DNA of 64,000 nt from Antedon mediterranea (lineage: Eukaryota > Animalia > Echinodermata). The notes under the pieces were generated by a model. That model searched no databases and had not been told where the DNA came from. It worked only from the letters and a program-made list of their open reading frames with translations. Location: contig NC_092671.1 in assembly GCF_964355755.1 (NCBI RefSeq), positions 12,586,001-12,650,000 of the forward strand. The letters are read 5' to 3'. Shown here in pieces: positions 30,101 to 57,100 of this stretch (its first letter is position 1; every line of letters starts with the position of its first letter). The translations under genes and the position numbers were made by a program.

Positions 30101-33100
30101 TACTTTATACTGTAGACATTCACATTTTTAGACTAGCTATCACTATGATTTTCTAAAAGTAGTTTAGTAAAATAAAAGGCATACAATAGAAGAATGAACC
30201 AAAAGCATGAAAATATTTGCACCATCATGCTTTCGCTGACTTTCTACATTCCTAATACGCATATGAGTGGATACTAAATAAATTATCAATACCAATATTT
30301 TTGATGGTTAGAATGTTCTCAAAAGGAAGACCAATCAGCAGATGAACTAACAGGTGAACCAGAAATTTCCTCTATCATGACTTCAACAGACAGAAATGAA
30401 ACTGATATTGGAGACATCAGTGAATTTGAGAGTGGGACAGACTATGCTGAATTTTTTCCTAGTGATTTTACATCTGATAAACATCAAGATACATTAGATA
30501 CAGCTAAAAAAGAAGAACCAAATGAGAAAGATTCTTTCACACAAGAACTTTTAAGTGAAGAAGACATGCTGATTGTGGAGGATGAAATACCAACAAAAGA
30601 GAGGGAAATAGTGCAAGATGCTCTAACAACAAGTAAACCTGAGGATACTATCAAGGAATCGACACCAGCATTAAAAGAGAAAAAGAAAATTAGGAAAACT
30701 GTTTCATTCGCAAATGAAGACTCAATTATTCTCCACAAAATAGTTGATTCTGAATATTCTGATTCAACAAGTGAATCTATTGATGTAGAATTATTTATTG
30801 AAGAAGATTCTTTACAAATTGAAGATGAACTTGAGTCAGATGTTGAACAATTAGAATCATTTGACAATAGTAAAAGAGTACCAGAGGTTTATTATAAGCA
30901 ACTGTTGGAATCTGGAAGGAACAACATTTCTGATGACTGCAAAATGATCGCAGAAGAGGAAGTTGTAAATGATTTAAAAGAAGATATTGAAGAAGATGAA
31001 ACTTATCCAGAAGAAAATGTTGTCCTTGAAGTGGACATACCCACAGACGTATCTAAGCCAAGTAAAGTGGATTTTGGTACTGTTAAATCTGAAGTTCCTG
31101 AACACATTTCTAAATATGCTGAAGAGCTCCTTAGTCAATGTATTGTGGACATTGCAAATAATGTAGGTGATACCTGTGTTGATCATGACTTAGAAAGTAA
31201 AGATAATGTAGAGGAAAGTTCTTTAAGCTTGTCAATAAAACACAAGGGAGACCTTGACGTTGTTATAAACAAACCTGAAAACTACTTGGATCAGCCTGAT
31301 GACATTCTAGATACTAACAGACAAATTGAGCTGTACGTAGACACAGACACTGGTACAGGTAATGAAGAAGATTCTTTGGAACTTCCAACATGTGATACAG
31401 TACCCAGAGTTACAAAAGAAAAGATTGTTCTTCAACAGGGCAAATCACAATTTGAGCCAAATCCTCCACAAGTAACCGAAAAGCATGAGTTTTACTTAGA
31501 ATCGCATGAAGAACAGGTGGAAAATATTGAGGCACAACGAGAAGAGGTGATGGCCAAGTTTTCAGAAGTTCTCAAAGAGCTTACACAAAAAGTAATCATT
31601 GTAGATCCTTATCCCATTGATGTGATCGAAATGTATTTGCCCACAGTAGATAAAGTCCAGCATTATTTAGAGATACATTCATTACAGCCTTGTGATGACG
31701 ATGAGGATGATGGTGGTGATGCCCAGAAGCTATTGGAAAAACGAACAGCAATATCATTGGATGAAACTGTATTAGATATTTTACCAGAGGAATCTTCCAA
31801 CAATGCCACAGAGACAACCCAACTACATTTCCAACACGGCACTAAGCAAAATGAAATGCAATTAGATATGCCTGAACAACAATTTCAATTTATTGGTGAA
31901 TCTAATGAAGTCATGGCCAGGTTCACAGAAGTTTCTGAAGAGAATCCACAAAATGCAGTCATTGTAAAACACCCTGCTGTCATTAAAAATGCAGAGACTG
32001 ATATTGGTGTTCCAAATACTAAGAATAACATTGAGGATTTACCAAAATATCTAAATAAAGGAGGTGTTAAAGAAGAAGGATTAACTGAAATATCAGAAAG
32101 TTTGACGGTTAATACAGTGAAGACCAGTAAAGAACTCTTTGCTATTACAGACACTGCACTTGATCATGGTACAAAACAAAGTGAACTAAATATGGATGCA
32201 CCAAATGAAGAAGTGCAATCTATCGATGTACCACTTGAAATAGTCACAACAACATGTTCAGAAGTACCAAATGTTGCAAATACAGTTTTGACCGAACCAG
32301 AGGAAAATGATGAGACACAGTGTTCAATACAGGAAACTAGTACACAACAGACATATATGAATGAAGGTAGGATGGATATGAATTTTGAAGAAAAAACTGA
32401 ACTCAAATACCAAATTCAGCTGCCTGATAGTGAGTTACCGGTAATTATTCAGCCAGTTGGAGATCAAGTTAAAATTGAATTAGAATTGCCAACATATAAA
32501 ACTGAAATTACTAAAGAAGAAGCTAGAATACAACAGCCTGTGTATCAAAGTGAAAGCAATGTGGATATTAACGCTGGAAAAAGTGCTGAACTGAAGTACC
32601 ATGTCGAAATGCCAGATTCTGATTCGGAATCGGATATTCAGCTGGTTAGAGATCAAATTGAACTAGAATTACCAATGTCTGGAAGTAACTTAACTAAGGA
32701 AGTTGAAATACAGCAACCCACACATCAAAGTGAGAAAAGCATAAAACTGAACTCTGAAGAAAGCACTGATCTTGGATATCATGTTGAGATGCCTGGTAGT
32801 GAGGTGGTCATTCAGCCAGCTGGCGATCAATTTAAAATTAAATTAATGTCAACATCACGTAAGACTGATCTTACTAAAGAAGTAGAAACTATTCCTGATG
32901 AACCGATAAAGCCTTCAGCACAACAAGATTTCAGTAAAGAAATTCTAACAATAATGCCAACAGAAAGAACTGAATTAAGAACTCAGTTTTCTGAAGAAAT
33001 TTACAAAAACCAAAATCCTGACAAGCAAGTAATGTTAACCGAAAAAAGTGAGGAACTAATTGTTTTTGATGGAACTAAACATGTTTCTGAAAAAGGTTGG

Positions 33101-36100
33101 CTTAATTGTTTAATAGTAGAATAGTACATTATTTTATCGTAAAAACTAGTTTGATATTATACTGTAATATTGTTTATTGGATTTAGACCATTGTATTTAG
33201 GTAATAAGATATAGGATTTCTTATGCAAATGTTTATTGTTGACAAATTCACAACATGAAACTGTAGGAAAATAAATACATCATTAAAAGGTATTTAAACA
33301 TTTCAGGATTACTAAATGATCCCTTCCTTCAAACATGCTCTACTTTACTATTGTTTTATTGGTCTTCATTAATAGAAGTAAGTCTTACTGTGACTGAGAC
33401 ACCTGATGCTGTGAAATCCGAGGAGGAAGTGTCTGTTGACTTGTCAGTATCTGAGGCAGCTCCACTGGTATGATATGAGCATTATTTAATTTTCATCATT
33501 TATTCACACTTGCATAAATACATTTGGTACAATAAATATATAGCATACAGTTGAGGTAGTGTTTCCTCTTCTGAAGATATACATCTTGTTTTACAGATAT
33601 AGAGTAACTTTATAAGTAATGTTCTGTTAAATAACAATCAATCAATATATATATATGTACATATGTATGTATAAATAGATATATAATAGTATTATTTTCT
33701 ACAGAGTGAAGAACATATTGAGGTCACTCAGACAGTTGAAGCACACGTAGAGGTTACTAGACTCACAGCAAAAGAAACTGTTGAGGTTATAACCACAGTG
33801 GTTGAAGAAGAAAAACCTGATGTTACAGTAACAACGGAGCAGCAAATTCAACTCCAAAAAGATGAAAAGGTTTGTCGATAATTTAATTATTTATATATCA
33901 TTTGAAGTATATGTTTTCTTTTATCACTGTAATCCTCCTCATCACACTTAATATTCTTAATACAAACTTGTTGGTATCATCGCTGTCATTTTTATATACC
34001 ATTTCTTTCTTGTTTCAGCCTGTAGACATAAAACTAGAGATTAAACAAGAGGAGCCAAAACACTTTGTTGCTTTAGGAAGCTACCTCGCTGAATCTGATG
34101 AAGTAATGTCTATAAGAGAAGGAGAAGGCAAGTATATACAAAAGATTATCGCTTTGACTTTGGTCAATTGTCCAGTTAAAAACCAATATTAATCAATTTG
34201 TATGTATAATATTAGATATTTATCTAACATGATTTTTAAAATGTTCATAAACCTAATGCATTTATTTAATTTCAATTGATATACATTTTTAATAAAGTCC
34301 ATTTCATGTAATTTGATATTTCTTTTATTTTTTAGATTTACGCATACTTGACAATTCACATGGAGACTGGTGGCTTGTGAGAAAGGGCACTGGAGAGGAA
34401 GGTTGGGTTCCCTCATCATATCTGGTTTCTACAGAGCAATATGAAAAACATCTTGAAGAGGAACTAGCTGACAGTATGCGATCTTTACCAACTGGTGCAG
34501 GTATACAGCTAATATCTAACAATATGTTTTTAGGAGATTCAGATATTAATCTGTTTGAAAGTTATTGCTGTTAACATTAATATGCTGTTTTAGCATTTTA
34601 TGAAAATCATAATTCCTTTATTGTGTTTTTGATGAATTAACTTTTCTATATAATTTAAAAGGTAAACAATTTCAGATAAAAAGCTTTTGATTTTCTTAAG
34701 TTGATTTTTATTAATATTATTATTTGTTGGCATGTGTTTTTTTAACATTTTAATTATGTTTGTGGAAAAAAAATACAGAATTAGTTATCCAAGGTGAAGC
34801 AAAAGCCCCTCAATTCACAACATCACTTGAAACAACAAAATCCAAAGATAACAAACCAGTGACATTAGCATGCTGTGTGGAAGGTAATCCTACACCTATT
34901 GTGGCATGGTATCGCCAGAGCACTTTAATACGTGAATCACCAGACTTTGAGATCAATTATGATGGCAGTCTATGTACTCTGACAATAAAAGAGGTGCTTC
35001 CAGAGGACTCGGGAAAATATACATGTGTCGCTAAGAACCAGGTTGGAGCAGCATCAAGCAGTGCTGATCTTCTTGTCGAAGGTAAAGGCACCTAAAAGTT
35101 CAGTTTTAGAGTCTTATGTTGTAAGAGTACTTAAGTTATTTATAGTTTCATAGATTGTACTAACCATAAATGTCTTGTATACTAATTGTTGTGTGTATTT
35201 GAAACAGTGAGTATATCAGATGCTGAGAGTATTGACAGTACCCACACTTCAACCTCAAGAAAATCTCTCTCAAGGTAATTCATTTAGTTTGTCACCATCA
35301 GTCCTCCTATGTATTCTAACTGATTCTTGTTGGTTAGTGTACTATATTTTGGCAATAGTTTTAGTTTGTAGAAAGTTAGGATTTAAGATTTGAAAAAGGT
35401 GTTCTAACTGACTTAAACTCAGAATCTTCTGCTTACAAATTTATTTTAAATCAACCAGTATCTTAAAAAATGATGTTACCATACATTTGTGGGATCTCAT
35501 TTCTATAGAGAATCCACGATAGATGAACCTGAAGGCCTTAAGCCAGCTTTTATGCAAGTTGCAAAGCCTAAATCTGTACAGGAAGGCGCTAAAAAGGTTG
35601 TGTTTGAGTTTAAGTTAATAGCCGCTCCACGACCTCAAGTTGCTTGGTATCACGATGGACTACCACTCGAGGAATCTAAGCAATATAAGACTTCTATGTA
35701 TGCTGATGTACATCTGTATATTCTTACACTGGAGATCTTTGATGTTGAGGATGATCATGAAGGAAACTATAAAGTGGAGGCTAAAAATAAAGAGGGAGAG
35801 GCTATTGCTGTTGTGAAATTGAATGTCAGCAGTAAGTAATAATCAATAATATGTTACTTAGATGAATTAATTATGAAAGTTATTCAGAACCATATCATAC
35901 TCCTTATAGTTTACATATATTTATGTTAATATTATTTATCAGAAGTTATAACATTACATACTTTTAAATGTTGTAATTTGCATATGATTAGATAGAATAG
36001 ATACCTAATATAGATATATAATATCATATAAAACACATCAGTTTGTTATGCTTATTTATAGCTTTTAAATTTATCATAATTAAGGTTCTTCTGTATGAAG

Positions 36101-39100
36101 TGTACACTTCAATTCTTCCATAATTTTCTAAATTATATTATGCTTGTGTAAAACATGTGAATGAGTAATATTTTTATTAATTTCCAAGTACATACTGTTT
36201 GTAATCAATAATTCATTTTATAGCATGCAATTACATAACAAACAAGCATGCTTTTTACCTAGTTTTATATAGTGGATTATATTTCAAAGGAAACTAATCA
36301 CAATTCTGAATTTTGCAATTCAGAATGGTAAAAGGTTTTAGTGACTGTATACTTGTAAGTAGAATGGTATGTGTAGAATCACCAGGCACAAGCACAAAGC
36401 CTTGTATTTTGATGCATTACTAATATCTTGCGTGTTTGTATGATGGTTGTCATGTTGATAAAGAGATTTAGTTATGAAGCGACATGCACATTATAAAATG
36501 TGAAGCTATGAAAGATAATAATGTTATTATATAAGGTAAAGAATCTTGCTTGAATTGTAGAAATAACAGTGTTAATTGTAATGATGATGTGGCCAGGTTA
36601 ATGATTCTACTATTGTAGAGAATTCTCATATTTCTTCTTATAATAATCTTGATTGATTATTATATTTATGATGTGATAATGATGAAAATAAGAATGAATA
36701 TCATAGTTGTTGTTCATTCATTTAATTAATACTACCATTATTAACATGCATTTTTAAAGTAACTAATACTGCTTGTATGACAACATTTTGATTAATTCTA
36801 TTTCTTAGCCACTAGATCATATTGAGTTGTTAGCTGGTCTTTTGCAAAATGTAACAATGCATGCTCACCCACTACCACCTCTCATCACTTTTAACCTCAC
36901 CATTTTAGTGGATGCCATATGGAATACTAATCTTTCTCTAAGGTTTGAATACTATTTTATGCTTTTTTGTTATCCTCTGCACTGATTTTAATTTGATTTT
37001 CATTGTCCAGCATGTGATTATGACAGCATAAATATATATTGTATGTTAGTAAATTGTACTTGGAGATCAGTGTTCATTTGATAGAAATTAAGATTGCTTT
37101 TTGCTTATTTAACATCATCTGATAACCACAAAATATGAATGTATTGTTACCAATTTTTTTGTTAAATACCAATTTTAGCCATCTTTTCTAGTATCCAAAG
37201 AAAAAACAGAAACCATTCTATATTTTCTGGAAAGGTTTCTTTGCCAAATTGCATATCAAATGATGTTGAATTAATCTTTGAATAAATTAGTCAATAAAAA
37301 TCATTGCATCTTCATCTTTACCTATGTCAGAAGCCACTCCAGAACCACCTCGATTTGTACAGCCAATTACCTCTCTTACTGTCAAAGAAGGTGAAACCGC
37401 AAAGTTTGAATGTATTGCAACTGGTGTTCCTCGACCTGATATCACATGGTGTAGAGACAACCAAGAGCTCTACCCAGGTGGTGCCTTCAAGATACAAGAC
37501 AACGGCAAAGACATATATACTATAACTTTAAAAGATACTGTCCCTGAAGATTCCGGGACGATTACCTGTTGGGCTGAGAATGATACCGGAAGAACTATGT
37601 GCGGGGCAGAGCTTACTGTCACTGAAGGTACCCCAGATGATTAAACCTCAAAACATCATTCAGACCATTTCCATTCATACATTTCATTCCCTTTAGTAAA
37701 CTGTAGTATATGCTTTCAAAACATTGCTTTAATGGATATTTCTGAACCTAATTGAATGTGATTGATATTTCATATTTGTTATTGAATTTTCGAAATTGTC
37801 TTCTATTTTTCTTGATAGTGCTTTGCTTCTATTTGTTTTTATGTGATAAGTATCTTTTCTAAATATTGCTAATTAGGAACTGTTTGAATCTGTGCTTTAA
37901 CACATTGGTTTTTTTTATATATCTTTTTTGGTATTCTATAAAATTATTTATAAATTCCTGCTTTCTTATTTTTCATTTAAAGAATTTTTAAAATTTAATT
38001 AAAGATTGAAAGACTCATTACATATAAATATTACATTCCTGATAACTAATTTTTTCCAGGAATTCTAATATTGATGCATGCTTTGTATGATACTAAATAT
38101 TAAATAAATGTATTGTTTTAGAACCTGTTCAAACTGAAGTAACTGTTACTAAGCATGAAGAGGTAACAATCACTAAGGTAAAGACAGTACACAAGCCTGA
38201 GGTAGCTTCTGTTTCTGTAAAAGAGGAGGAAGTAGAAGAAGTTCCAGAACCTCCAACATTTACCATACCAGTCGAAGATGTAGACGCACTGAAAGGAACC
38301 ACTGCAGAGCTAAGAGCGAAGGTAGCTGGATCACCCATGCCAGAAGTTACTTGGTATCGAGATGGAAAAGTGTTGCAACCCAGTGAGCGTTATCTGATAA
38401 TGAGTGACAACGAAGGAAATGTATCTCTAATTGTATCTGATGCGAGGATGGAAGATGATGCAGAGTATCTTTGCAAAGCAATTAACAATTATGGAGTAGC
38501 TAGTTGTAGAGCTGATATTATTGTTGAAGAAGGTATATTAATATTATGTATTTATTATTGAAAATAAGTAGATGATAATATAAATTTTCAATCCATGCAT
38601 AAATATTACTATACACATTTAATTGTGACAAAATGTAAGACTTCATTTGTAGTTGGTAAGTGACAGAGAAAGGTAAATTTCTATTTCTTTTTTAAATTGA
38701 GAAAAATTCAAGTAAATCTTTTACTTCTCTATTTCTCTGTGAACATGTATCAAAGACAACTCGTAGAGTAGTCTATTAATAAAGTAATTAACATTTTAGA
38801 ACCAACAGAAATGACAGAAGCTGCTTCAATAACGATGCAGGAAATCATTCTTGACCAAGCAAAGGCAGAGTCCGAGATTTTGGCAAGTGAAGTAGAGTCG
38901 GAGGATATTCTTGATGATGATCGCTTTGAACTAGTGGAAGAGGAAGCTTTACCAGTGGAAGAAGTAACTACTGAACTACCAAGTGAAGTAGTGACTACTG
39001 AAGTTACAGTAGAAGGTAGGACAAAGTATAGCCATTCGGATGGTTGATCAACTCTTTTATTATTTGGGTTGTGAAAATTGTATACATATTTTGTATTAGA

Positions 39101-42100
39101 TTTATTGAATTATTCTTGGATACTTGTATCAATTAATTAATTTTGCTTGGTGACCAACATTTGGTATGTGGTTCTTTATATTTTTACACTTACACAATAT
39201 CTTTATTCCTGCACACTATTACTAATCTATTTAAAACAGAGCCGATAGAAGAAGCAGTAGTTGATGAACAATTTGAGGAACCTAAATTTGTTGAGGAGAT
39301 GGTAGATATGGAAATAATCAAAGGTCATCCTGCTCAATTTGAGGTTCTTGTATCAGGAAATCCAAGACCTACACTTAACTGGTTCAAAGATGGTCATGAA
39401 ATATCTCCTGATGAACATTTTTCAATGGAGTATGATGACGATGGTATGGCGTGCCTTACAGTCAAAGAGACTTCTAGTGATGATGATGCAGAATATACTT
39501 GTAAAGCTATTAACAAAATAGGTGAAGCAGTATCAAAAGCTGATATATTCATCCAACCACAATATAAAAAACCTGTTGAAGGAACGATGCCAATGTTTGT
39601 TCAAGAGTTAAAAACTGTCAGATCCTTTGAGGGGGACAATATTAACTTGATCTGTAAAGCCACTGGTACACCAGACCCAGATGTGATATGGTACAGGAAC
39701 TCCATCGAGATAAAACCAAACCCAAAGGTTTCAATGGATTATGATGAAAATGGTGTGTGTATCCTACTTATCAGAAATGTTCATGCTTCAGATGCAGGAA
39801 TGTATACTTGCAAAGCTGTAAACAAAGTTGGAGAAGTTTCAACCTCTTCAGAGTTATTTGTTGAAGGTAAAGAAGGCTTGGTTGAAATGCTTCATTACTT
39901 ACAGACTTTTGCCTATTGTGTCATGGTACCAGATGATGATTAACCAGGTTTTGTTTGTTTTTTGGTTGACGTGTACTTGCACCAACATTTAAACTGCACT
40001 AGCTATTAATTTTCGCCATATCCTGTTGTCACGTTTTGGTTTTGAGAATTTTATTAAACATGTCATTGATCAATAATCTCCTCATAGCATGTCATTAGCA
40101 CTGAACTGTTTTATGTATTGATTTGGTGGTTGCTATTGCATTTACAGTGAACCATAACCAATATTTTAATTTGGTAAAAAACATATTTAACCTATAGCTG
40201 GAATAATTCTGCAAAGCAATAGAATATTAATTATACTAGAAATAATAATAAAAAATATATATATTATAGAATTTATTTTGGATATTGTATTACTAATATA
40301 AAAAAGTTTAACCTCCAAAATAAAACTTTGGAATACATTTTAAATTCTTTAATTTATTCAATCTTTAAAAATCTTATTATGGTCTATTCCATTCACTCTT
40401 TTAAATTAACAATAGATTTAACCTTAATTAGTGTTAGATATAGAGTATTGTATTTACGATAAGTATTGAACCTCTAAAACCTTCTAGTTTTAATGTTTTG
40501 TTAAATCTGTTTTATACTTGTGTATGTAATGTCTGCTACTAATCATGTATGTTAAGTATCCTATATTAACTTTTTACATGCATGGAATAGAAGAAAATAT
40601 TGTGTTTAATAGAATCCAATCTACCTCTCTTTTTAGATAACTTATAAATATTCCACATGGTATTACAAACCTCAGGTATTTTGCCAAAACTAGGAAAAAT
40701 TATTTATGGCCATTTTTCATTTGAATTGTGTTAGTTTGTGAATAAGTGAGCATGATATTTAATATTTGTGACTATTCTTATGATGAGTCATATACAGTAG
40801 CCATTTCAATGGATTATTTTCAAATAAATCAAATGTAATGTTCAACCATAGACCTATATGTCTATGGTTGAACCATAGACATATAGGTCTATGGTTGAAC
40901 CATTGGCATCAATTCTTGAACAATAAAAAAAAATTAATTATAGTCTGGTTGGTCAAATAAGGTTATGACTCATCATAAGCAGTATTTTTTTTTTTATATA
41001 TATATATAATTTCACCACAAGTAGTATGTCCAAAATCTTTGAAATGTTAACAAACATAACCTTAATAAATTATGAGTGCCTGCTCTTTTCTAGAATACAA
41101 TTATTGTTGTGCATAATTTTGTAGATAATTGCACTAAACATTTTGTCCTTTTTGTACTATATTCTTAAGTAATTAATGTATATGAGCATCATAAAATATG
41201 CCAATATGTTTAGTAATATATTACCAATCATTTAATAATGCAAAACATTATACATAATTTTTATATAGTTTTACAATTATTTAAAATTTTATAGAATTTT
41301 TCATTACTCTTAAATAAACTTTAAATGAACAAAACTGAGTTATTTTCTAAATTTGTTTTAGATTTACATTCATTTTGCTTATTTTCTCATTTTTGCTTAT
41401 TCTTTCATTTTATATATTTAGTATTCAAATATCAATTCCTTTTATAATCTATTTTTTTGTCTTAATTTATAAGATTTATTTAGTTTCATGGCCTTTTCAT
41501 TACAGATATACCATTCAAACTTTATTTTATTACATTTAGTCCATATATTTTCAGAGAGCAATACTATATTATGTTTTTTGCTAATGTACACTGAACTTTA
41601 CTTTCTTCTTTTTCATTTAGTATCTTTTCATTCAATTTCATCACACTTCCATTGCTATTTTCATTTTCTTAGTTCCGGCAAACATTTTGGATGGACCATC
41701 AACTATCACAGTTAATGCTGGGGAAACTGCAAAAGCAACGTTTTCATTCAGTGGATTCCCATTACCGACTGTTACATGGTCTCGTGGCTATCTTGAAGTT
41801 GACGAGACAGACCGTATACATATTAAGACTCACAAGACAGAAAGTACCCTGGTGATTGATAATTGTGTCGCTACTGATGCTGGCGAGTATGCTATTGAAG
41901 CAGAGAACAATGCTGGGGGACAAGAACGATATGTTAATGTTATTGTAAAGGGTAAGTAAGGCAGGGGCAGATCCACGGAACCTTCCCCCACCCCCCCCCC
42001 CCACCCCAACCTAAATTTCACAAATTGTAATGCAAAAGGTAGGACATCAAATCATCATCATTTAATTTCACTATTTTTCCGTCACTGTAAGTAGTCAAGG

Positions 42101-45100
42101 TCTTGAATGTATATTATATACACATGTTCTCATTCATTTTATATCCTCTTACATTGTCGCAACAAAATTGTGTATAGTTGTATTGCTAAATCAATTTTTT
42201 TTGGTATTTATTTTATTTAAATTCGCAATCAACAGCAGGGAGCCCATCATTACATAATACATAAAAGAAAAAAGAACATCGACAAGGTCCACAAGATTTA
42301 AATAATGATAAAAGATAAAGATAAACAATTAAAGAAAATATCAATAGTGGAGTAAAAAAATAAAAAATGTTGGTGTTTAATCTTGATATGTCCACTTATT
42401 ATAATCATGAAATTTCAGAAATAATGAATGCAACCAATATTGAATTTATATTATTGTTAAATCTTTCAAATTGTTTTATAGATGTTCCTGGCAGTCCGAG
42501 CAAACCTCAAGTTTCCAATATCACAAAGACATCAGTCCGGTTAACATGGCAACCTCCTCACATGGATGGAGGCTATGTTGTCAGTAATTACCATATTGAA
42601 CAGCTTGATGTACAGCAACGTACATGGACTGTTGTCAAATGTTTTAACAGTTTGTCTATTGAACTAGACAATCTTTATCCTGGAATTGAGTACCGCTTCC
42701 GTGTCAGTGCCGAGAACATTCTTGGTGTTGGAGCACCTAGTGAAGAGTCTGACGCTATTATGACTAATAAATCAACAGGTATTAGTATTTTGTGAATAAA
42801 TAGCAATTTCCATGTATTATATTTTATATATTGATGTGATAAAAATAGATACTTTACACAAAAAACCAGTACATGCTAGTTGATCACTATATCAATGTCC
42901 AGCCACAGTGTAGCTGCCATATTGTGTTTACAACTTCTAATTCAAAATTGATGGTAATTTCCAATACTGTATTGTTATTGTTTTAAATGCAATGTCTTTA
43001 AATTTATCTTATAAAAGTAGTTGATCACTACAATCAATGTTACCTGTTCATGAGTTAAATGGAGTTGAAGTAAAAACTAAAATTTCATAGCGTCCTTTAA
43101 AATATGGTAAATCGAATATCATGAAAATTATTGGTTTTTTTTTGTGCTTTTTTGTGTTTATAGAGCCACCAAGATCTGCGGATAAAATGGACACTCTGAG
43201 ACCACGAGGTATGACAGGACTGCCTGATCTTCTAGAGTGGGATGTAGTGGGCCTACTGGCTATATTTGTGGCTTTCTGCTATTTTTTAATGTCATTCATT
43301 ATTTAATATAACTAAAACAGCTTTAAAATTAGACATGTTAAAGATACACTACCATTTGAAAATTCAAAAATGTAATAATAATAATAATAATAATAGTAGT
43401 AATAATTTTAGACATGTTTGAACAATTTTTGAAAATGAAAAAATAAAATTAGTCAAATAAAGTTACTATTTGAACATTACAATAATAATATCTAATAATA
43501 CCATAACATTATTTCAGCGAATATAGTAAACAAAAATAATTGGACTTTGTTATTTGTTATTGTGGTAGTATATCTTTAATAATATCACAAGAATCACAAC
43601 AAGAAATGGCAGCATGCTGTCTAGGATATTGGTTTGATGGCATGCCTTGCATGATTTCAGATTTGTAGTTAAGAATGAAGATAAGGACATACATTTTCAC
43701 TTTAATGACATTTGATTTTGTTTTACTGGCATGTTTTGCATGGTTTTAGATTTCTATTTTAAGAAATATGTTAACAATTGTATAATGAGAATCGAGAAAT
43801 TCTCCTCTAAATGTTTGATAAACATTTTTTAAAAACTTTTTAACATAATTATTATTCATTATTTCAAGTCATAAATCAAGGTTAGCCTTTTTAGCAGGTA
43901 AAAATTAACTTGCATATTTCAAATCTTCCAAAATAACTTTGACATTTTTGTATGATGTCTTTTATTATTTTATTGTTTTTTTGTTTAAAATTATAATGAA
44001 TGGTTTAATTTACCAAAAGTGCATTATTGTTTAAATGTAAAACTATGTAAAAATTGTATATTGAAGAAAATAGTTTTCAGAGACAAAAATATTTTTAATA
44101 AATAATAATTATTTCATTAAATGTGTTTTTCCACCAAGCATGTGTTGTAAATAATCACAGTGTGTGAAAAGCATTTCCTCTGATTTCAATGTAGTAGTGG
44201 ATAATAGTTCTTCACAAAATGAGTAGTGGAGTACAGTTGATCATGTAGCAACAATATTAACTAACAAAGTTAAGCTGATCAGCTCAATGATTGTACTGCT
44301 TTATTTCATGAAAAACAATTATCCATTGCTCACAGTGTGTTTTATACAGTAGTTTACTATATACTGATTCTTATAGAATTATTATATAAAAATCAAACAT
44401 TTGTTTGATTGACCATTACCTAACAAATAATGCAATTTTATATTTTTTTAAATATGTAATTATGTTTATAAAATATTTGTACTGTATATGTATTTTTATA
44501 TGTTGTTAAACTAACATAAATTTGTGATAATTTATTTAATTAGTTTTGATCACATGCACAGTAATTAACTTGTTATAGATTGTTTCAAAGTTATGCTACA
44601 GTTAAAATAACCATTTTGCACCTAAAATGATTTTGTTTTTTACTAATACACTCTAAATACAACAACTTGTTTTTGTATGTAGTATAAGAGATTATGTTTT
44701 TGAAATTTTTAAAACTCTATAATGTTTGGGATGTTAGTGACTTTCATTTAGACTCTTACATTTAGAAATCGTGATATACAAAGGACTCGTTTACTTATAA
44801 TAAATGTCTTAACATGCTAATACCGACTTTATTTGTGTTTTTTATTTAATAACAGTAGCTGAATATTTCAACATACTTTTATATAAATGTACAATGATGA
44901 GCTTTTGATTTTCCAATGACCAAGATATGCAGTGACCTCATACAATGATAATTGATAGTTTTGAAGGCGTCATTGGTTGTTGTGATATTGAAAGCTCATA
45001 TAATCATAACTCTTCCATGCATGAGTCCAATCACTATTCTTGACCATGCATGTTTCATTCAATATAGCTCCAACATTTACAAGGCCATTACATGACACGG

Positions 45101-48100
45101 ATATTGCCGAGGGGGATAATGTAGAGATGGAGTGTTTAGTTGAAGGAGAACCACATCCAGAAATTGTATGGTACAAAGATGGTGAAGTGCTTAAAGAATC
45201 AGAACGACTAACACTTCATCACAGTGCTGAAGGTGCATGTAAACTTTATATAGAGAGCGCTGTACAGCAAGATGAAGCATTTATAATATGCTCCGCAATT
45301 AATCTGGATGGGTCAGCTACCACAAGCGCACAACTAACTGTCGACGTTTACAAAGGTTTGAAGCACAATACATACATTAGAATTAACATCAGATAATTCA
45401 TTTTAACACATCAAATAGATTTAGCTGTCTTGCTGCCAATATCCCTTTGTTAACTTGTTTCAAATTATCTTTTGCAACATAATACATATATATATATATA
45501 TATATACATTGTTATACCCACAGAAGCAACTGAGTTTATATCTGAAGAGTCTGAACAAAGAGTAGAAAAGGATGAACCAGATGCAATTCCTTCAGTTATA
45601 AGAATTCTTGAAGAAACGCCAGTCAGTACTCCTCCCGAGTTCTATTCGACTCCCCCTGAAAATATATTTATTGAGCCACAGCTTCAGCAGATTGTTCCAG
45701 AAAAGTTCTCGGCTGAGTCTATTGTTGTCGAAGAACAATATCCTGCTGTGGAGAAAGTTTATGAAATAACAGATACAACAGAGTTGGAGAAAAGACGTGA
45801 GGAAGAAGAAATAGTTAAAGTGGAAAAGTTTGAAAAACCAACACCATCAAAGGAGATCACTATTGTTGAAACAGTAGTTATTGAAAAGCCACTGTCAGTT
45901 GAGAAATCAACTGCTGCCGTTGAAGTAACTGAATCTCAAAGACCAGTAACACAAGAGGTAATAACACTTGTTGAGGAAATAACAGTTAAAGAAGCTGTTC
46001 CACTACAAAAAGATACTGCTAAAGTTGATATTACCAAAATTGTAAAACCAGTGGCTAAAGAAGCTGCTACCATTATTGACACAGTTGTGGTTAAAAAACC
46101 AACACCACCAGAGAAGGTTACTGCTAAGACTGACATCACTGAAACTGAAAAGCCAGTGACACAAGAAGTAGTAATGATCATTGATGGGGTCAAAGTTAAA
46201 GAAGCAGTACCATTAGAAAAGCATGTAGCTAATGTTGACATTACTAAACCTGCGAAACCAGTAATTGAAGAAATGCTCACATTCATTGACACCGTCATAG
46301 TTGAAACACCAAAACAAATGGAGGAAGTTTCTGCTAAACCACTCACAGTTGAAGTTGAAATACCAGTTACACAGGAAGTAATAACACTTGTCGATGGAGT
46401 CACTGTTAAGAAATCGCTGCCATTGGAACCAGATACTGCTACAGCAAACATTACAATATTGAAAAAACCAGTGTCTAAAGAAACTATTACTATTAGTGAC
46501 ACTCTTGTGGTAGAGAAACCAACACCAGTAGATGAGGTAACAGCTAAGCCTAAAATCACAAAAGTTGAAAGGCCAGTTACACAAGAGGTAGTAACACTTG
46601 TCGGTGAAGTCACAGATAAAGAAACTGTTCCATTGGAAAAGGATACTGCTAAAGTTGACATCACTGAAACTGTGAAACCAGTGGCTAAAAAAGCTGTTAC
46701 CATCATTGACACAGTTGTTGTTGAAAAACCAACCAAAGTAGATGGGGTAACTGCTAAGGCTGACATCACTGAAGTTGAAAGACCAGTAACACAAAAAGTA
46801 ATAACACTTGTTGATGAAGTCACAAATAAAAAAGCAGTTCCATTGGAAAAGGATACTGCTAAAGTTGACATCACTGAAACTTTGAAACCAGTGACTAAAA
46901 AATCTTTTACCATCATTGACACAGTTGTTGTTGGAAAACCAACCCAGGTAGATGAGATAACTGCTAAGGCTGACATCACTGAAGTTGAAAGGCCGGTAAA
47001 ACAAGAAGTAATTACACTTTTTGATAAAGTCTCAGACAAAGAAACTGTTCCATTGGAAAAGGATACTGCTAAAGTTGACGTCACAGAATCTGTAAAAGCA
47101 GTGGCGAAAGAAGCTGTTACCATTATTGACACAGTTGTGGTTGAAAAACCCACACCAGCAGAGGAGGTCACTGCTATGGCCGACATCACTGAGGTTGAAA
47201 GACCAGTAACACAAGAAGAAATAACACTTGTTGACGAAGTCACAGATAAAAAAGCAGTTCCATTGGAAAAGGTTACTGCTAAAGTTGACATCACTAAAAC
47301 TGTAAAACCAGTGGCGAAAGAAGCTGTTACCATTATTGACACAGTTGTTGTTGTTGAAAAACCAACCCAAGTAGATGAGGTAACTGCTAAGGCTGACATC
47401 ACTGAAGTTGAAAGACCAGTAACACAAGAAGTAATAACACTTTTTGACAAAGTCACAGATAAAAAAGCAGTTCCATTAGAAAAGGATACTGCTAAAGTTG
47501 ATATCACTGAAACTGTAAAACCAGTGGCGAAAGAAGCCGTTACAATTATTGACACAGTTGTGGTTGAAAAACCAACCCCAGTAGATGAGGTAACTGCTAA
47601 GGCTGACATCACTGAAGTCAAAAGACCAGTAACTCAAGAAGTAGTAACACTTGTTGATGAAGTCACAGATAAAAAAGCAGTTCCATTGGAAAAAGATACG
47701 GCTAAAGTTGACATCACTAAAACTGTAAAGCCAGTGGCGAAAGAAGCTGTTACCATTATTGACACAGTTGTTGTTGTTGAAAAACCAACCCAAGTAGATG
47801 AGGTAACTGCTAAGGCTGACATCACTGAAGTTGAAAGACCAGTAACACAAGAAGTAATAACACTTTTTGACAAAGTCACAGATAAAAAAGCAGTTCCATT
47901 AGAAAAGGATACTGCTAAAGTTGATATCACTGAAACTGTAAAACCAGTGGCGAAAGAAGCCGTTACAGTTATTGACACAGTTGTGGTTGAAAAACCAACC
48001 CCAGTAGATGAGGTAACTGCTAAGGCTGACATCACTGAAGTCAAAAGACCAGTAACTCAAGAAGTAGTAACACTTGTTGATGAAGTCACAGATAAAAAAG

Positions 48101-51100
48101 CAGTTCCATTGGAAAAAGATACGGCTAAAGTTGACATCACTAAAACTGTAAAGCCAGTGGCGAAACAAGCTATTACCATTATTGACACAGTTGTTGTTGA
48201 AAAACCAACCCAAGTAGATGAGCTAACTGCTAAGGCTGACATCACTGAAGTCAAAAGACCAGTAACTCAACAAGTAGTAACACTTGTTGATGAAGTCACA
48301 GATAAAAAAGCAGTTTCATTGGAAAAGGATACTGCTAAAGTTGACATCACCGAAACTGTGAAACCAGTGGTGAAAGAAGCTGTTGCCATTATTGACACAG
48401 TTGTTGTTGAAAAACCAACCCAAGTAGATGCGGTAACTGCTAAGGCTGACATCACTGAAGTTGAAAGACCAGTAACTCAAGAAGTAGTAACACTTGTTGA
48501 TGAAGTCACAGATAAAAAAGCAGTTCCAATGGAAAAGGATACTGCTAAAGTTGACATCACTGAAACTGTGAAACCAGTGGCGAAAGAAGCTGTTACCATT
48601 ATTGACACAGTTGTTGTTGAAAAACCAACCCAAGTAGATGAGGTAACTGCTAAGGCTGATATCACTGAAGTTGAAAGACCAGTAACTCAAGAAGTAGTAG
48701 CACTTGTTGATGAAGTCACAATTAAAAAAGCTGTTCCATTGGAAAAGGATAGTGCTAAAGTTGACATCACTAAAACTATAAAACCAGTGGCAAAAGAAGC
48801 TGTTACCATTATTGAAACGGTTGTGGTTGAAAAACCAACACCAGCAAAAGAGGTAACTGCTAAGACTGACATCACAGAAGTTGAAAGACCTGTAACACAA
48901 GAAGTAATAACACTTGTTGATGAAGTCACAGATAAAGAAGCAGTCCCATTGGAAAAGGATGCTGCTAAAGTTGACATCACCGAAACTGTGAAACCAGTGG
49001 CGAAAGAAGCTGTTACCATTATTGACACAGTTGTTGTTGAAAAAACAACCCCAGTAGATGAGGTAACCAAGATTGACATATCTGAAGTTGACAGGCCAAT
49101 AACACAGGAACTCACTGTTAAAAAGGAACCAGTTACAGAAGAAGTAGCAACTATTCCAGCCAAAATTGTTGAACCATTTAAAGATAAGGTATAGCTATTG
49201 CAATTAATTACATAGTTGAATTCTGAGTAATATTGTTATGGTAAATTTCAATTATTATAATTATTCCGTTTTTCTATCTAATGGAATTTAATAAAACTAT
49301 ATAGATGATATAAATAGAATTTTGTAATGCACATTGATTTTAGTAGGATTGACGAATAATTCTAAAGATGATAAGGTAAGATTTAAATTAAAATTCTTTG
49401 AAATTGTAGGAAGTTGTTGATGGTGACTACGTCAAATTTACTAGCACTTTGAGTGGAACTCCTCGACCAACTGTCAACTGGTTTAGGTATTGTGCTTTTA
49501 ATTTATGATTGATAATTCTGTATTTTTTATTAAATTCATTTATTTTAATTTATTTAATTGCTATTATAGGAGCTTATGGCTCTTTTAAAGTTAATGAGCT
49601 TCAGTTACTCGTTTGTGTCACTGAATAAATATTGTTATGACATGTAAATTAATCCAATATATACAACAACAGGAATGAGACTGAAATTCATACAGATGAG
49701 GATTATACTTTAATGTACGAAAATTACATCACATCACTTGAGATTCTTGATGCTATTCCAGAGGACTCTGGTGAGATTACTCTGAAGGCATTCAACATTG
49801 CAGGAGAAGATTCTTGCACAGCTAATCTTGTTGTGTCTGGTATAGTACCACTTATTATATTACTGTAATAAAACACAGGCTTTCTCCTGAAAGATATCCT
49901 GATAGGAATAGTTTTGGTAGTAAATTTATATAGCATTAAAATTACACAGTAAAATACTTTTTACACATAAACACACAGAATATGTATACAATAGTTAAAA
50001 TACAGTATATAATAGTAAAAATATGAAATAAAGATATATATCAAGATTGTATTATATATTGTCATTGTTTTTACAGAAAAACTATTTCCTCCAACGTTTA
50101 TTGATAAGCCAAGCGACCGTGAAGTAATGGAAGGTATTTAAGTAACTTTGATTCGTTTAGATATCTGCCGGACTGAATGATTCTGCGTATCAAATAGCTT
50201 GGAAATATTTTTTTCTTTTTACTGTTTCGACTAATTCAGTGTTGAATGATTTATATTACAGGGGATGACATTGAAATTCGCTTCAAAATTGATGGTAATC
50301 CGTATCCAAGCCTTTCCTGGGGCAAAGGATGGAAAAAAGTTGTCTCAAGTGAACAGTATACAGTAACTGTTGATAAAACTACATCAGAACATGTTCTAAT
50401 TGTTCATGGAGCCAACATAACTGATGCAGGAAACTATATCTGTACATTAAGAAATTCTGAAGGAGAAACAAGGCATCGTGTCCACATGAAGGTCAATCCT
50501 AAACCGGTAGAGAAAATGTCATTTCTTCGTGCTTTAAAAAAGTAAGATTTGTTGTTATATTAAATGAATTGTTTACAAAATATATTAAGTTCTTATGAAT
50601 TAATAATGTGTAATTAGTTTTATTATCATGCTTTCTCAATTAAAATTTCAGGAAACCAGAAGTAAAGAAAGAAAAAGTTGAAATTAATATCTTTGAACTT
50701 CTAAAGGAAGCTGAACCATCTGAGTATGTGGAGATTTTAAAGGAAAATGGTGTTGTTGACTCTAACGAAATTGCAGAACATGTGGAAAAAATGAAAAAAC
50801 ACAGAGAGAAAGAAGAAACTTTACAGGTATTTTGAGTTTAATTTAAATCTTGTATAAATATAATTGTTGATATGGAAGTAGTCGGTAACTTGATTGAATA
50901 TTAAATTGTTATGTATCTTCTTTGTATAGGAATTTGTCCCAGAAGCTTCCAAGTCAGAAACTGTTCCAGAGGAGAAGCATGTCGGAGAACCGATTCATGT
51001 TGCAAAAGTTGAGGCTTCTATAAAACAAGATTCTTTTGAACAGGCACCAGCGGATACACCTGACAATCTTCAACCAAATGTTCTTGAAATTGGAAAATTA

Positions 51101-54100
51101 CAGGATATTAATGATGTACAAATTTCCCAAGAGGAAATACTTCAACATGAGTCGATAGAATTGGAAGTTGAAGAAGAAGTAGAAGTGCCAGTTGTGATAG
51201 ATGAACCAAAACAAGAGAGGGGAGAACCAGAAGAAGTATTTTTAGATGCACAATCAGAGATAGAAGAGAAAATAACGGTTGAAGATGAATTAGAGGAGTT
51301 AGTAGAAGCAATACCAGAAATTGAGAAAATCAACATTGATGTTTTAGAAGAAGAATTTGAAGTTACCAAACCAGAAATCAAAGAACAAATTGAATTTGAA
51401 GAACTAGGAGTAAAGATGGAGATGCCAGTGCAAGAGATTCATGATATGGTATCATCAATTATTATTGATGAAAAACCTGACCAAATGCTAAAGAAAGAAG
51501 TTGATGTTGTGAAACCTCATGTAGAAGAGCCAGAGAAGGTTGAGATATTTCGAACAAAAGCTCAAAAGCCAAAAGAAGAATCTGAGGAAATGAAAACAAA
51601 GCCTTTTGTTAAAAAAGAATTAGAACCTGAACATGCAATTATAGATTTGAGTAAGACTAAAACGCAAAAAGAGGAGGGTAAAGAAGTTAAGACAGTAACT
51701 CTTGGTAAAAAAGACAAAGAACCAGAGCACATGCTTGTTCAGTTAAAGAAAACACCAAAAGCCAAAGCTGAGAAAGTTGATACTGAATTTACTTTGCCTT
51801 CTAAGAAATCTGCAGTTGAGGAACCAGTCATTCCATTTAAAACAAAGGCATCAGAAGAACCTATTACTTTACCAAAGAAACAAGTAACTAGGGAAGTGCC
51901 TGAAAGTGTAGATGAACCCATTGTTGAACATTTTCCAAAAGCTATTGGTAAGTTTATTATTAAGATAAATAAGTTAAAATTTGGTATAATTGAGCAGTAA
52001 TTTTAAATGTTTTACAACTTGTGTTGACTGTAACATATTATTCTTTGTAGAAAAAGTGATGCACATCACTGAAACAGAGGCAGTAGAAATACCAGCTATG
52101 ACAGTTATTGAAACTGAAGCCACTGTAATCAAACCAAAAGCACAAGCTCCATTCTTTGAAATAAAACCACGTGCAAAGGACATAGAAGAGGGTATAGTTA
52201 ACGTTTTAATTCAATTCTTTTATAATCATAATTCCTGATTTGTGCATCATTTTTTAATTATTTTTTTTATTTCATTTGTTTTTTTAGGTGAAAAAGTCGA
52301 ATTGTACTTTAAAGTTCATGGATTCCCTATGCCTTCTATAGAACTTACCAAATCTAACAAAAAGGTTGAAAGTACTGATCACTGTGAAATTGTTATAAAT
52401 GTAGATAAAGGTGAATGCTTAATTTCTATTAATGCCACGTTACCATCAGATGCCGGTCGGTATATCTGTAAGATAGCGAATGAAGCTGGAGAGACAAAAC
52501 ATGTGGTATCTTTAATGGTCCGAGAAAAACAAGTCAAGCAAACTTTCAAAGTACCACTCAAAAAGTAAGTACTGAACTCTACTCTTTTATCAGAGTATTA
52601 CATTAAAACAAAAGGGCTGTTTTATGTGGATATCAAACAGTGCCAACTGTATGTATGTATGTACAACTATAATCAGTATAGTGAAATATAATGAGTATTC
52701 CAAATTCTATTATTTACCACTCATAGAGCTGCCTCTCCGAAAAAAGAGCAGGTGCCTAAGAAACGTGAACGAAGGGATTCTGATGAGATCCAAGCTGAAA
52801 TTATTGAAGCTTTACTACGGGAGGCTAGCCCAGATGACTATGAAAGAATCTTGATGGAGCATGGAGTGTTTGACTTTCGTGCAATGCTTAAACATATCAA
52901 ACGAGCACAAAGGACTGAGACAGTTGAAGACATTGACTGGGGAGTAAGTAATAATGTCTCATTTTACATGCTTTTTAAAAGAATTTGATGTTATTTACTG
53001 AAGCTATAAGTTTAATAATCAAATATTTCTATTTCTTATTTATAAATAATGTAGTTCATTAGCTAAAGTAAGATATAAATATATTTGCATTTCTAAAGAA
53101 ATTACGTCACATTGAGGAATCTGTGACTGAAGTAACCCAACCAGCACTAGAGACGGCAGCTGTCACCTCTCCTACCATCTTACTTAGAAGTGAAATACCA
53201 AAATTACCAGGTAATTTATGAATATTTTAAAATTAAAACTTCAATTTTTTTAAAGTTTACCAGATTTTCAATTCTAAATAACTAGACTTCTCCCACGTTC
53301 TGTTCTGTAGTCTACTATTTCATGATTATTTAAAAAGGAACAAAATATTATATAAGTAAAAAATAATATTGAGGTGATTATTCAATAATGATCACACTAG
53401 AAACATTGAATTACTGTAATTGAATATATGTATATAGTATATATATTTATGTGAATGGTCACAGTGTTTTCTACTTATGCCTGTTCTCACTGTTTTGAAA
53501 CTTTACGTTAATTTTGTACCATCAATAATGTGTCGTATTTATATACAACCTTAGATTGTGTGGTGTATATATTACGGTGGCATAGAAAATACCGACTCAA
53601 CACATTGTTGTATAACAGTGTTGTACAGTAGTGTTATAAGTGAAAGAATACAAACTACATATGTTTCTAATGATCATGTTTGCGTTTTATCCCTAACAAT
53701 TGTTTTAGCATATTTTGTATATACACACTAACAGTTTTGTAGAATTATGTGTTTCATCTACCTGAGTGTTTAGATTTTCTTCCTTTCTTTGTTTTTCTTT
53801 TGCAATGACTTTGATTTATTTGTTTTGTTAATTACTAATGGGCTGCACTGGGGAATACTGACTGACTTAAAAGCTAAGGTTACATGTCAATAATAATAGT
53901 AGAGATATTTGTTGGAAAATCCTCTTTTGTTACATTTACAAACACTTTGAAATAACCAAATGTTCCAGTCACTTGCATGTGAAGCCTAATGCACATCAAG
54001 ATTTCTACTAGCGCATGCCAACCAAACGAGGTCATAGTTTCTGGCATTCTGTGTATATTTTCAGACGTAGAAATCGGCTCCACTGATGTATTAGATTCAT

Positions 54101-57100
54101 ACGTACCATCAGGATCAGGGATTCCAGAGTTTTTCAGTTATGTCTCAGAGGCTGATGCTAAAGCAGAGATTGTTGAAATAGAAATAAGAGAATGTAAAGA
54201 AGACATTAAACATGAAGAAGTAATTAAACCTGGTGAGGAAACTCCACTTGAAGACAGTCTTCAACAATTCATGTCAGCTGTAACTGAAGAAGATGTAGAT
54301 GGTACATTTAAAATCGGAAGTAAAGTTAAAGCAGAGATTAAAGAAGAAGTTGAGATGTACAAAGAAGTGGAAGAAGCTGCCATCCAAATCGAAAAACAAG
54401 AAGATGTAGAAAGTGCATTTGAGTTTAAAAAGAGAAAACCAGTAGATGAGGTGAAAAGTGATGGAGTATTAAAACCAGACCATGTAGAAATAGATGAAGT
54501 AGAAAGTGCATTTAAATTAAGAAAAAAGGTAGAAGAGGAGGTGGAAATTCGTCCAAAGCTGATTTCAAAAGTCGCCCAAGAAGATGAAGGGGAAGGTACT
54601 TTTGTCCTTAAAAGAAAAGCAAAAGGTACATACATTTACAGAATTTTTACAAATTACAAAAACTTGTGACCAGGTGAAAATTTAAGGTAAGATTGAGTAA
54701 ATGACAATGATAATATTGTTTGTTACTGGAAGTCATGTAAAAATAAATGTAAGTAAAAAATGCACATTGCTCTTTCAATAATCATATTGACAATAATTAA
54801 TACACATAACACAAGTTCAACTGCACTCCATCCTTTTTATCACATCACATTTAATGAAAGCAAAGTCACTATTCTGTACACTGTTTGTATAAGTGCATCA
54901 ATCCCAGTTATCAAAGATCACAGGCATCTGGGTACAATCTGTATTCTTTCACACTATTATTCACACTGTTATTTTTTCCTGAGAACATTCATCGTTTCGT
55001 CGCACCACCGAACACACTATTGCACCATGGCATTCTGAATGAAGTATTATACTTATATAAGGGCAACTCTTTTAAGATTTTGTAGATGATGCGACTTCTG
55101 AAGTTTCTGAAGACTCTACTAAAGAACAAAGTGAATCTCTGACCAATACATTTTCCATTGCTGCCATTCCAAAAAGTGATACATATTCAGATTCCAATAT
55201 GAAACATGAAACAACAGTAGATAACCTTGATAAAAACACATTTTTAGCTGAAAACAATAAACATAGTTCATCTTCTGAAGAAGAGTGGATAAAAGTTCCA
55301 TTACCTAGTTGGGGGATGGGTAGTTTTCCATATCAAAAACCTGGACATAAACTTGTCCGTGTTAAAAAAAAGAAGAAAAACAAACCATCAAATGAAGAAA
55401 ATATTTCTGCTATATTTGATCAAGAGGAACATTGTGATGAGGGTAAAGATGATGAACTTTCTGAAAGAGTTGATGATTCAGTTGTACTTAATGAATCAGA
55501 CCTAGACTCAGCAGAAGAATACCAATCAAATGAATATCAAAATAAAATACCACTGTCAAAAGATCAAGCTCAATCCGAACGAAATATGAAATCAAAGCTA
55601 GTTGATGGTAAACATGAGAGAACAGCAAGTAAAGACTTTTCAGACAATGATTCTATCCAAGATATCTTATCATTGATAGAAACAGATTTACAAGATGTTT
55701 TCGAACAGAGCACACAGACTGATATATCCATTATTGTAACTACAGACAGAGGGACTGATGCATTTAATGATTGTGTGGGCAAAATTAATGATATTTGTTC
55801 TGAAGATTTTGTCAGCAGTGAATTGTCTCCAAACGAACAGAATAAGTATATTATGCCTGATTCTGAAATATGTGCAAAAAAACCACATCACAAAGATTCC
55901 GAAAGTAACCATGCTAAAGACAAATGTACTGAAACTCTAACATATATTGAACATCCTAGTTATCTCGCAGGTGAAAATGACAAAGATACACAAACAATTG
56001 AATCATTTCCTGTCAACGATGTCAATCTGAGTAATGATGACATTGAATCAATTTTTTGTCACAGTACCAATACTGACACTTTTCTACCCGACATATTATG
56101 TCTTCCAAATTCCCCTACCAAAGTCGACCAAGTACCTTGTCAGCATGAAAACGACAAACAAGAAACTAGACAGAAAGAAGAGCCAGTCACGTTTGAGTAT
56201 AGTAAGCCATATATGACTGATGTATTAATTCTAAAAAACGAAAGTGTTGCTGATCAACCCGTTGATATCGATAGAGATGAAAATATAGCAGCAAATGATA
56301 AATGTTCAGTTGAAGAATTTCCTACTAACCTGTCTGATAATGAAGCTGAAAATGGTAATGGAATAGGTCCTGATGAGTTACTAGTTCAAGCAGAAGACAC
56401 GCCTAATGATGGATTTCATACTGAAAATGATGAATGTAAAGAAGAATATACTGGAAATTTGCATTCTACTTTTGGTGATACTATTGATAGTTGTGATTAT
56501 GATAGTACTCATGAACAGAAAAATATAAGCAAAAATAAAGATATACATAATAATTTACCCACACTTCATCAAAAACATAATTCTCAACATAATATTATTG
56601 AGGAAGATGTTTTGCCTGAACCAATTCCAAAAGATGAGGGCATTTATGCAGTAATTGAATACGGTAATTAATCAAATTTTCTATTATTATTTGCGATGTT
56701 AGTTAAGGAAGCCGGATTTGTAGAATTATAACTTGTATGATGATGTCACAATATGAAAAAAAGGTAAGTTACCGCCCCACAATAGAGTAAAGGTGAATAC
56801 TATTCGTTCTGAGCATAAAGGAATGCATTGAGAGCTTGCTTATGCGCTAGATAAGAATGAACTATTACTGTATTATTATTAAGAACCCAAATTACTAATT
56901 TCTGGCATTATGTGGTGGGTTGGTTAGTTCTACCTTATCCACTCAGTATTTTTAATTAAGTGCTCATTGGTTTCTTGTGAAATTTGACATGACATATTGT
57001 ATCATTTTTTCATATGAACATCACTAACAATGTATCATCATTGCTTATGTTATATGTAATGTTTGTTTATCATTTGTTGTTTTTCTAAACGCTATAGTAT

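Follow-up and report, generated by a model that had tools for sequence, protein, structure and literature searches.

A conserved hydrophobic read-through tail at a splice donor of a crinoid titin gene: a candidate membrane-anchored isoform

Introduction

Titins are regarded as soluble filaments that reach membranes only via adaptors such as obscurin-ankyrin or nesprin. In Solo/Trio8, membrane anchoring is achieved by a hydrophobic C-terminus. The closest precedent for a titin with a membrane end appears, by analogy, to be isoform 2 of mammalian CCDC141, which combines an Ig domain with a C-terminal transmembrane end and is located at the nuclear envelope and in a network near the Z-line (PMC12657953, partial text). 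CCDC141 is a product of the ancestral "connectitin" locus, which it shares with titin (PMC12198301), and its alternative ends either carry or lack a C-terminal transmembrane domain, as do those of the titin proposed here. However, the two helices would occupy different places in the locus. CCDC141 is a spectrin-repeat protein with one Ig domain that is encoded upstream of TTN, whereas the crinoid titin helix lies inside the titin body, preceded by dozens of Ig domains as well as PEVK-like stretches, an SH3, and an Fn3.

Several other systems share single features with this arrangement. Vertebrate titin Novex-3 is likewise cut short in the I-band region, where it ends in an alternative exon, and has nuclear and sarcomeric roles, but its terminal exon is large and separate, and the available part of the source describes no membrane helix and membrane links only via obscurin (PMC6098106, partial text). 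Solo/Trio8, too, is a short isoform that associates with membranes, but a neuronal Rho-GEF on endosomes (PMC4536496, partial text); the Trio gene is treated as the ancestral paralog of titin (PMC12198301). In Drosophila, Sallimus/kettin is an Ig and PEVK chain that ends in Fn domains, and early stops lead to short isoforms; it has five C-terminal Fn domains, with no membrane helix described in the available part of the source (PMC9886281, partial text), whereas the crinoid titin has one Fn3, followed either by the tail or by a continuation into chordate-type tandem Ig domains. The pair of obscurin and small ankyrin 1.5 also links the myofibril to the sarcoplasmic reticulum (SR), but with two proteins and the anchor on the ankyrin, where the proposed titin isoform would use one chain for both (PMC2172649, partial text). 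Purriato (PMC10036370, partial text) was considered for comparison and was not relevant.

According to a review of echinoderm muscle, which leaves titin unmentioned in its available part, the arm muscle of crinoids is obliquely striated (PMC10603993, partial text). The initial annotation of this locus knew of no description of a membrane-helix titin. This claim stood in part: no paper on a membrane-anchored titin was found in the literature searched, which covered few subscription journals, but the published CCDC141 isoform 2 is an analogue at the same ancestral locus, and the tail itself already ends a RefSeq model. This model, XP_033111500.1 from the crinoid Anneissia japonica, is an automatic prediction named only "titin-like" that contains neither the onward splice nor a statement about a membrane; it is orthologous to the gene analyzed here, collinear with it over 10135-43303, and has the same terminal tail. 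The tail is present in RefSeq as an uncommented model, is conserved, and is surprising for a titin.

Results

The window, that is, the whole stretch of 64,000 nt of Antedon mediterranea DNA that was analyzed, is part of one very large titin/connectin gene on the + strand, the 5' half of which is Sallimus-like and the continuation chordate-like. Pfam found I-set Ig domains in 10 of the 19 ORFs scanned, which together with long P/E/V/K-rich ORFs characterizes the titin/connectin family, as does the joint presence of a titin-type Fn3 and an N2A-like tri-helix motif. The ORFs from upstream up to the tail encode I-set Ig domains, SH3, P/E/V/K-rich stretches, and a single Fn3 (Pfam), the best PDB matches of which are titin Fn3 domains. 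After the tail, a further Ig, a PEVK-like repeat exon, and the tri-helix motif (PDB matches to MyBP-C, E 2.3e-7, and to titin 7nip, E 0.051) are followed by tandem Ig exons that run to the end of the window. The features needed below are as follows:

34335..34511, + strand: 3' part of an SH3 domain exon (Pfam SH3_1, E 5.4e-6; 81% identical to XP_033111500.1, P0004)
41673..41951, + strand: I-set Ig exon preceding the Fn3 exon (Pfam I-set; RNA joint 41950->42481; 71/93 identical to P0004)
42482..42778, + strand: titin-type Fn3 exon (Pfam fn3, E 6e-15; RNA joints; 77/98 identical to P0004)
43164..43208, + strand: 45-nt linker exon common to all isoforms, 5' part of the proposed composite last exon (RNA contig end at 43208)
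43209..43214, + strand: phase-1 donor gtatga, also coding for Gly-Met (RNA joint; Gly-Met invariant in all four tails)
43209..43306, + strand: read-through coding tail, 32 residues plus the stop TAA at 43304-43306 (open frame; 29/32 identical to the C-terminus of XP_033111500.1)
43244..43303, + strand: the final 20 residues of the tail, all uncharged and predicted to form a transmembrane helix (Kyte-Doolittle 19-mer 2.63; AlphaFold2 helix)
43307..44410, + strand (assumed): likely 3' UTR of the tail isoform (RNA contigs behind the stop)
44385..44390, + strand: TATAAA, a possible variant poly(A) signal that precedes the end of the RNA contig by 20 nt (sequence; weak, in an AT-rich background)
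45068..45355, + strand: next Ig exon of the long isoform (Pfam I-set, E 7.6e-21; RNA contig)
45524..49194, + strand: PEVK-like repeat exon of the long isoform (ORF; RNA contig from 45522)
52695..52985, + strand: tri-helix motif related to the MyBP-C M-domain and the titin N2A insertion (PDB search; ORFs)

The initial annotation had read, from the sequence, a 45-nt exon with a phase-1 donor at 43208/43209 that can splice to 45068, and an RNA contig bears this out. The exon, 11 of the 14 residues of which are identical to the Anneissia model, lies between an acceptor ending in ttatag and the donor CGAG/gtatga. The expression data come from a single RNA run, X1, available as contigs that carry no strand, ends, or true level and from which rare branches are dropped; X1, which no record lists as RNA, was classed as such since three GT..AG introns are skipped in its contigs. 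One contig of 651 nt with a depth of 260.9 spans the Ig, Fn3, and 45-nt exons and stops at 43208. From there, a branch with a depth of 145.7 leads to 45068 (joint 43206->45066, cut +2, GT..AG), so that the donor is used in one isoform, as is typical of a composite last exon. Compared with the upstream depth, this value indicates that most transcripts in X1 continue past 43208. A second branch, from 43208 to 45524 with a depth of 88.8, was derived by bin-depth arithmetic and has no listed joint; this route would skip the Ig exon 45068-45355, and the donor would thus have three fates, namely inclusion of this exon, skipping, and read-through.

Reading through the donor 43208/43209 gives GMTGLPDLLEWDVVGLLAIFVAFCYFLMSFII, with the stop at 43304-43306. 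As had been noted initially, the frame remains open for 32 codons up to the TAA and ends in 20 uncharged C-terminal residues, and a recount reproduced the noted contrast in GC content between 43209-43280 (35/72, 49%) and 43321-43380 (12/60, about 20%). A value of 35/72 was reached by only 6 of the 1,134 intronic 72-nt windows in 33000-45000, all of them in one C-rich tract, 41952-41982. Of the 1,331 GT starts that lie in introns of the window, 178 are open for at least 32 codons, 13 reach a Kyte-Doolittle 19-mer value of at least 2.5 at any position, and one yields a C-terminal segment with such a value. The DNA runs X2, X3, and X5, from one sample, cover the tail without any letter change or gap listed in 43209-43306; therefore, the tail is not an assembly error. 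No paralogous tail was detected elsewhere in the window, where the best other HMM score was 7.1 bits.

The 46-residue exon-plus-tail sequence (P0001) served as query for a full HMMER scan that covered 1.84 billion representatives and returned five matches at E<=0.001. The best was XP_033111500.1, a protein of 7,754 aa, the very end of which (residues 7709-7754) matches at 87% identity (E 3e-16). The model is collinear with the window across 22 matches, each with 50% or more identical residues, that were selected out of 520. The tails alone are identical at 29 of 32 positions (91%) with the same stop position, compared to 76-79% for the flanking Ig/Fn3 exons (the excess is not significant; Fisher P=0.10) and 40% (1273/3170) for the giant exon 12545-21184. 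Since frame, length, and 91% identity are kept at this distance, which is not expected of intronic DNA, the tail is, as judged by sequence comparison, evidently under selection.

Two further matches, P0005 and P0007, are short ORFs from ENA assemblies and are more distant, with 15-17 tail residues identical to the window tail. Both begin with an acceptor-like start, continue with a PEVK-rich linker (54% and 64%), and then contain Gly-Met and the tail, which stops 32 and 30 residues on, after the helix. From this ORF layout, they would seem to belong to titins as well. Across all four tails, 13 of 30 positions are invariant, and in all four cases the frame is continuous from the upstream exon into the tail. 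The conservation anticipated for a real tail is thus borne out: it is intact, in frame, and ends identically in Anneissia, and it is recognizable in two more distant sequences. P0009, from the cluster of P0007, extends 34 residues beyond the helix; either a different code was used in gene calling, or a longer form may really exist. P0006 and P0008, the remaining HMMER matches, are repeat proteins that match a few words and were dropped. Word-seeded homologue searches, the length ranges of which are exceeded by giant titins, yielded 0 of 9 candidates for the tail (82-2000 aa) and 1 of 141 for the Fn3, an unrelated multi-Fn3 protein; alignment A1 likewise yielded 0 of 3,646 candidates (192-2000 aa, again below giant titins). 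Among 238 metagenome pattern matches the sole pass, L001, is a bacterial transporter-like gene matched in another frame without a titin match, and the ESM Atlas contained no usable match for P0001 or P0007.

The C-terminal segment is predicted to form a membrane helix. AlphaFold2, run with five aligned sequences, predicted that the linker is disordered and that residues 19-45 of the query form one helix, with pLDDT values of 79-94 in the last three blocks. All four tails have Kyte-Doolittle values of 2.6-2.8, and in the 7,754-aa Anneissia protein no segment other than the final 19 residues exceeds 1.7. A single hydrophobic helix within the last 20 residues, with no residues after it, is the hallmark of tail-anchored proteins. 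The flank of the helix has a net negative charge of -1 to -3, and there is no positive charge after or just before it. The invariant positions do not cluster on one face (moment 0.25, P=0.28), so the helix is apolar all round. No PDB chain matched the tail at E<=10, and Pfam found no meaningful match, the nearest being TMEM171 (E 0.043) and PspC (E 0.18), each in a single member of the tail set. Hydrophobic transmembrane domains are directed to the endoplasmic reticulum (ER), whereas mitochondrial tails carry positive C-termini (PMC10200711, partial text); the tail features would accordingly point to insertion into an ER-type membrane and not into mitochondria. The Anneissia protein lacks a hydrophobic N-terminus, and the true N-terminus of the gene lies upstream of the window. 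The SH3 and PEVK-like regions imply that the bulk of the chain is probably cytosolic, with the SH3 exon as the upstream cytosolic marker of the Sallimus-like half; a GPI anchor was rejected because the upstream chain would be cytosolic.

The DNA behind the stop codon is transcribed. Two X1 contigs map there, 43412-43657 with a depth of 20.2 (and 44 more letters in a skipped repeat) and 43956-44410 with a depth of 36.4 and one mismatch in 455. No contig was found in 42800-43161 or 44411-45065, and one other intron carries a contig, with a depth of 4.89. The contigs behind the stop fit a 3' UTR of about 1.1 kb of a minor isoform that ends near 44410, and the TATAAA in front of this end is followed by a U-rich tract at about 44436-44449. 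The two AATAAA motifs at 43442 and 43456 that had been cited for polyadenylation are present, but at chance frequency: two such motifs in 43307-43470 compare with 1.58 expected (P=0.48), and four in the whole intron with 4.16 expected. They were discarded as an argument. The associated poly(A) site near 43460 was not supported; the contig 43412-43657 runs through both motifs, and transcription reaches about 44410.

Across 43209-43345 there is no contig in X1, and read-through was thus not directly seen. The depth in the bin 43190-43267 is fully accounted for by the spliced contigs (residual -0.6), and the graph branch at 43208 by the two spliced routes (145.7 + 88.8), with no read-through needed. 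However, contig assembly drops rare branches, so that the hole alone proves nothing. The tail isoform might make up roughly a tenth of the transcripts, a loose estimate because of the properties of the contigs described above.

Discussion

We consider it probable that the locus encodes a minor isoform with an alternative last exon, namely an I-band-type titin that is predicted to be tail-anchored at the ER/SR or the nuclear envelope. The switch between splicing and termination that was proposed initially stands in so far as the tail is conserved, the donor is spliced, and the DNA behind the stop is transcribed up to about 44410; its early poly(A) site does not stand. Splicing of the donor 43208 to 45068, which was observed, would continue the long filament. 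In roughly a tenth of the transcripts the donor would remain unused, polyadenylation would occur near 44410, and the ribosome would add the 32 conserved codons before it stops, so that the chain would end in the 20 uncharged residues of the predicted anchor. From general tail-anchored protein biology, a helix without residues after it or a positive flank would be inserted post-translationally by the GET/EMC machinery into an ER-type membrane. The chain of Ig, PEVK-like, SH3, and Fn3 regions would stay in the cytosol and could then elastically tether the Z-element or the thin filaments to the SR, the nuclear envelope, or the cell cortex; the tandem-Ig part further downstream, which runs in the direction of the thick filament, would be missing from it.

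An unlikely alternative is that the tail is not the end of a titin at all. Translation from the invariant ATG, which lies shortly behind the start of the intron, would then give a free membrane micropeptide of 31 residues, or an internal promoter would lead to a very short protein. Sarcolipin and other SERCA-regulating peptides have a similar size, the Met at position 2 is invariant in all four tails and would give peptides of 29-31 residues, and the RNA contigs behind the tail are not bridged to the upstream exons. However, the donor gtatg accounts for the Met equally well, the upstream exon and the tail share one continuous frame in the window, the Anneissia model, P0005, and P0007, and the preceding intron (42800-43161), in which a transcript from such a promoter might start, carries no contig. 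In addition, the PDB (E<=10) and Pfam searches gave no match to sarcolipin or phospholamban, although both libraries presumably contain such peptides.

Similarly improbable is the possibility that the isoform is made but its helix stays outside the bilayer and binds to a partner protein or to itself within the sarcomere. The invariant Trp, Asp, Cys, Tyr, and two Ala go beyond what lipid anchoring alone would need, but a run of 20 uncharged residues that is equally hydrophobic in all four tails, with its invariant positions not gathered on one face, speaks against a docking helix.

That the tail is unselected intron read-through or a degron appears very improbable. Such tails do exist: U-rich non-coding DNA often yields hydrophobic C-termini, which BAG6 passes to the proteasome (bioRxiv 2022.07.20.500724, partial text), and no contig covers the coding read-through. 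Nevertheless, 29 of 32 residues and the stop are shared with a species in which the giant exon is only 40% identical, a fixed motif recurs in two further lineages (P0005 and P0007), and the GC content is 49%. Equally remote is a tail-anchored isoform that resides at the mitochondria or the plasma membrane instead of the ER/SR or the nuclear envelope: ER-inserted tail-anchored proteins can traffic onward, and CCDC141 is found at costameres in the adult heart (PMC12657953, partial text), but the net charge of -1 to -3 around the helix is unlike that of mitochondrial tails. Finally, it is hardly conceivable that a separate Sallimus-like gene normally ends with the tail and that a second gene begins with the exons at 45068, although Drosophila Sls ends in Fn domains (PMC9886281, partial text) and the RefSeq model stops at the tail, because this is largely refuted by the RNA contig that joins 43208 to 45068 (depth 145.7 versus 260.9 upstream).

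If the tail-anchored titin exists, a conserved switch to a membrane-anchored I-band spring would provide a direct route from the contractile lattice to the SR or the nucleus, and it would be a candidate organizer of the obliquely striated arm muscle of crinoids (PMC10603993, partial text). A broader reading, which we regard as tentative and rather doubtful, is that of an ancient, class-wide or even wider integral-membrane titin isoform, with a spring in the SR or the nuclear envelope, a fixed Trp/Asp/Cys/Tyr pattern that binds a membrane partner, and the CCDC141 transmembrane end perhaps as a relic. In that case, sarcomere stretch would pull directly on the calcium store or the nucleus, without an adaptor. 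The conserved switch also makes it possible to test whether the connectitin locus has long had products with a transmembrane end, an idea suggested by CCDC141 isoform 2.

Additional features of the gene

Ig exons at 1491-10135 lie upstream of the start point of the Anneissia model (10135), so this model is either N-terminally partial or has an internal start. An acidic ORF of 939 codons at 30305-33124 has no Pfam match. In its matches with 50% or more identity, the Anneissia model jumps from 29185 to 33333 and has no counterpart of this ORF, which may be an alternative or a fast-evolving exon. The intron preceding the Fn3 exon contains a multi-copy element at 42207-42357 with elevated DNA depth and many loose ends.

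Downstream of the donor, a 1,246-codon ORF at 45454-49194 consists of T/V/E/K-rich repeats of about 70 residues each, as judged by eye, and looks like a lineage-specific PEVK-like spring immediately after the switch. Two motifs resembling the tri-helix of MyBP-C and titin N2A, at 50644-50832 and 52695-52985, each stand behind an Ig exon. An acidic low-complexity ORF of 531 codons (55076-56668) without a Pfam match separates the tri-helix region from the tandem Ig exons. At 57634-62775, a three-exon tandem Ig unit appears to be present in about three copies with near-identical translations, suggesting a recent internal duplication.
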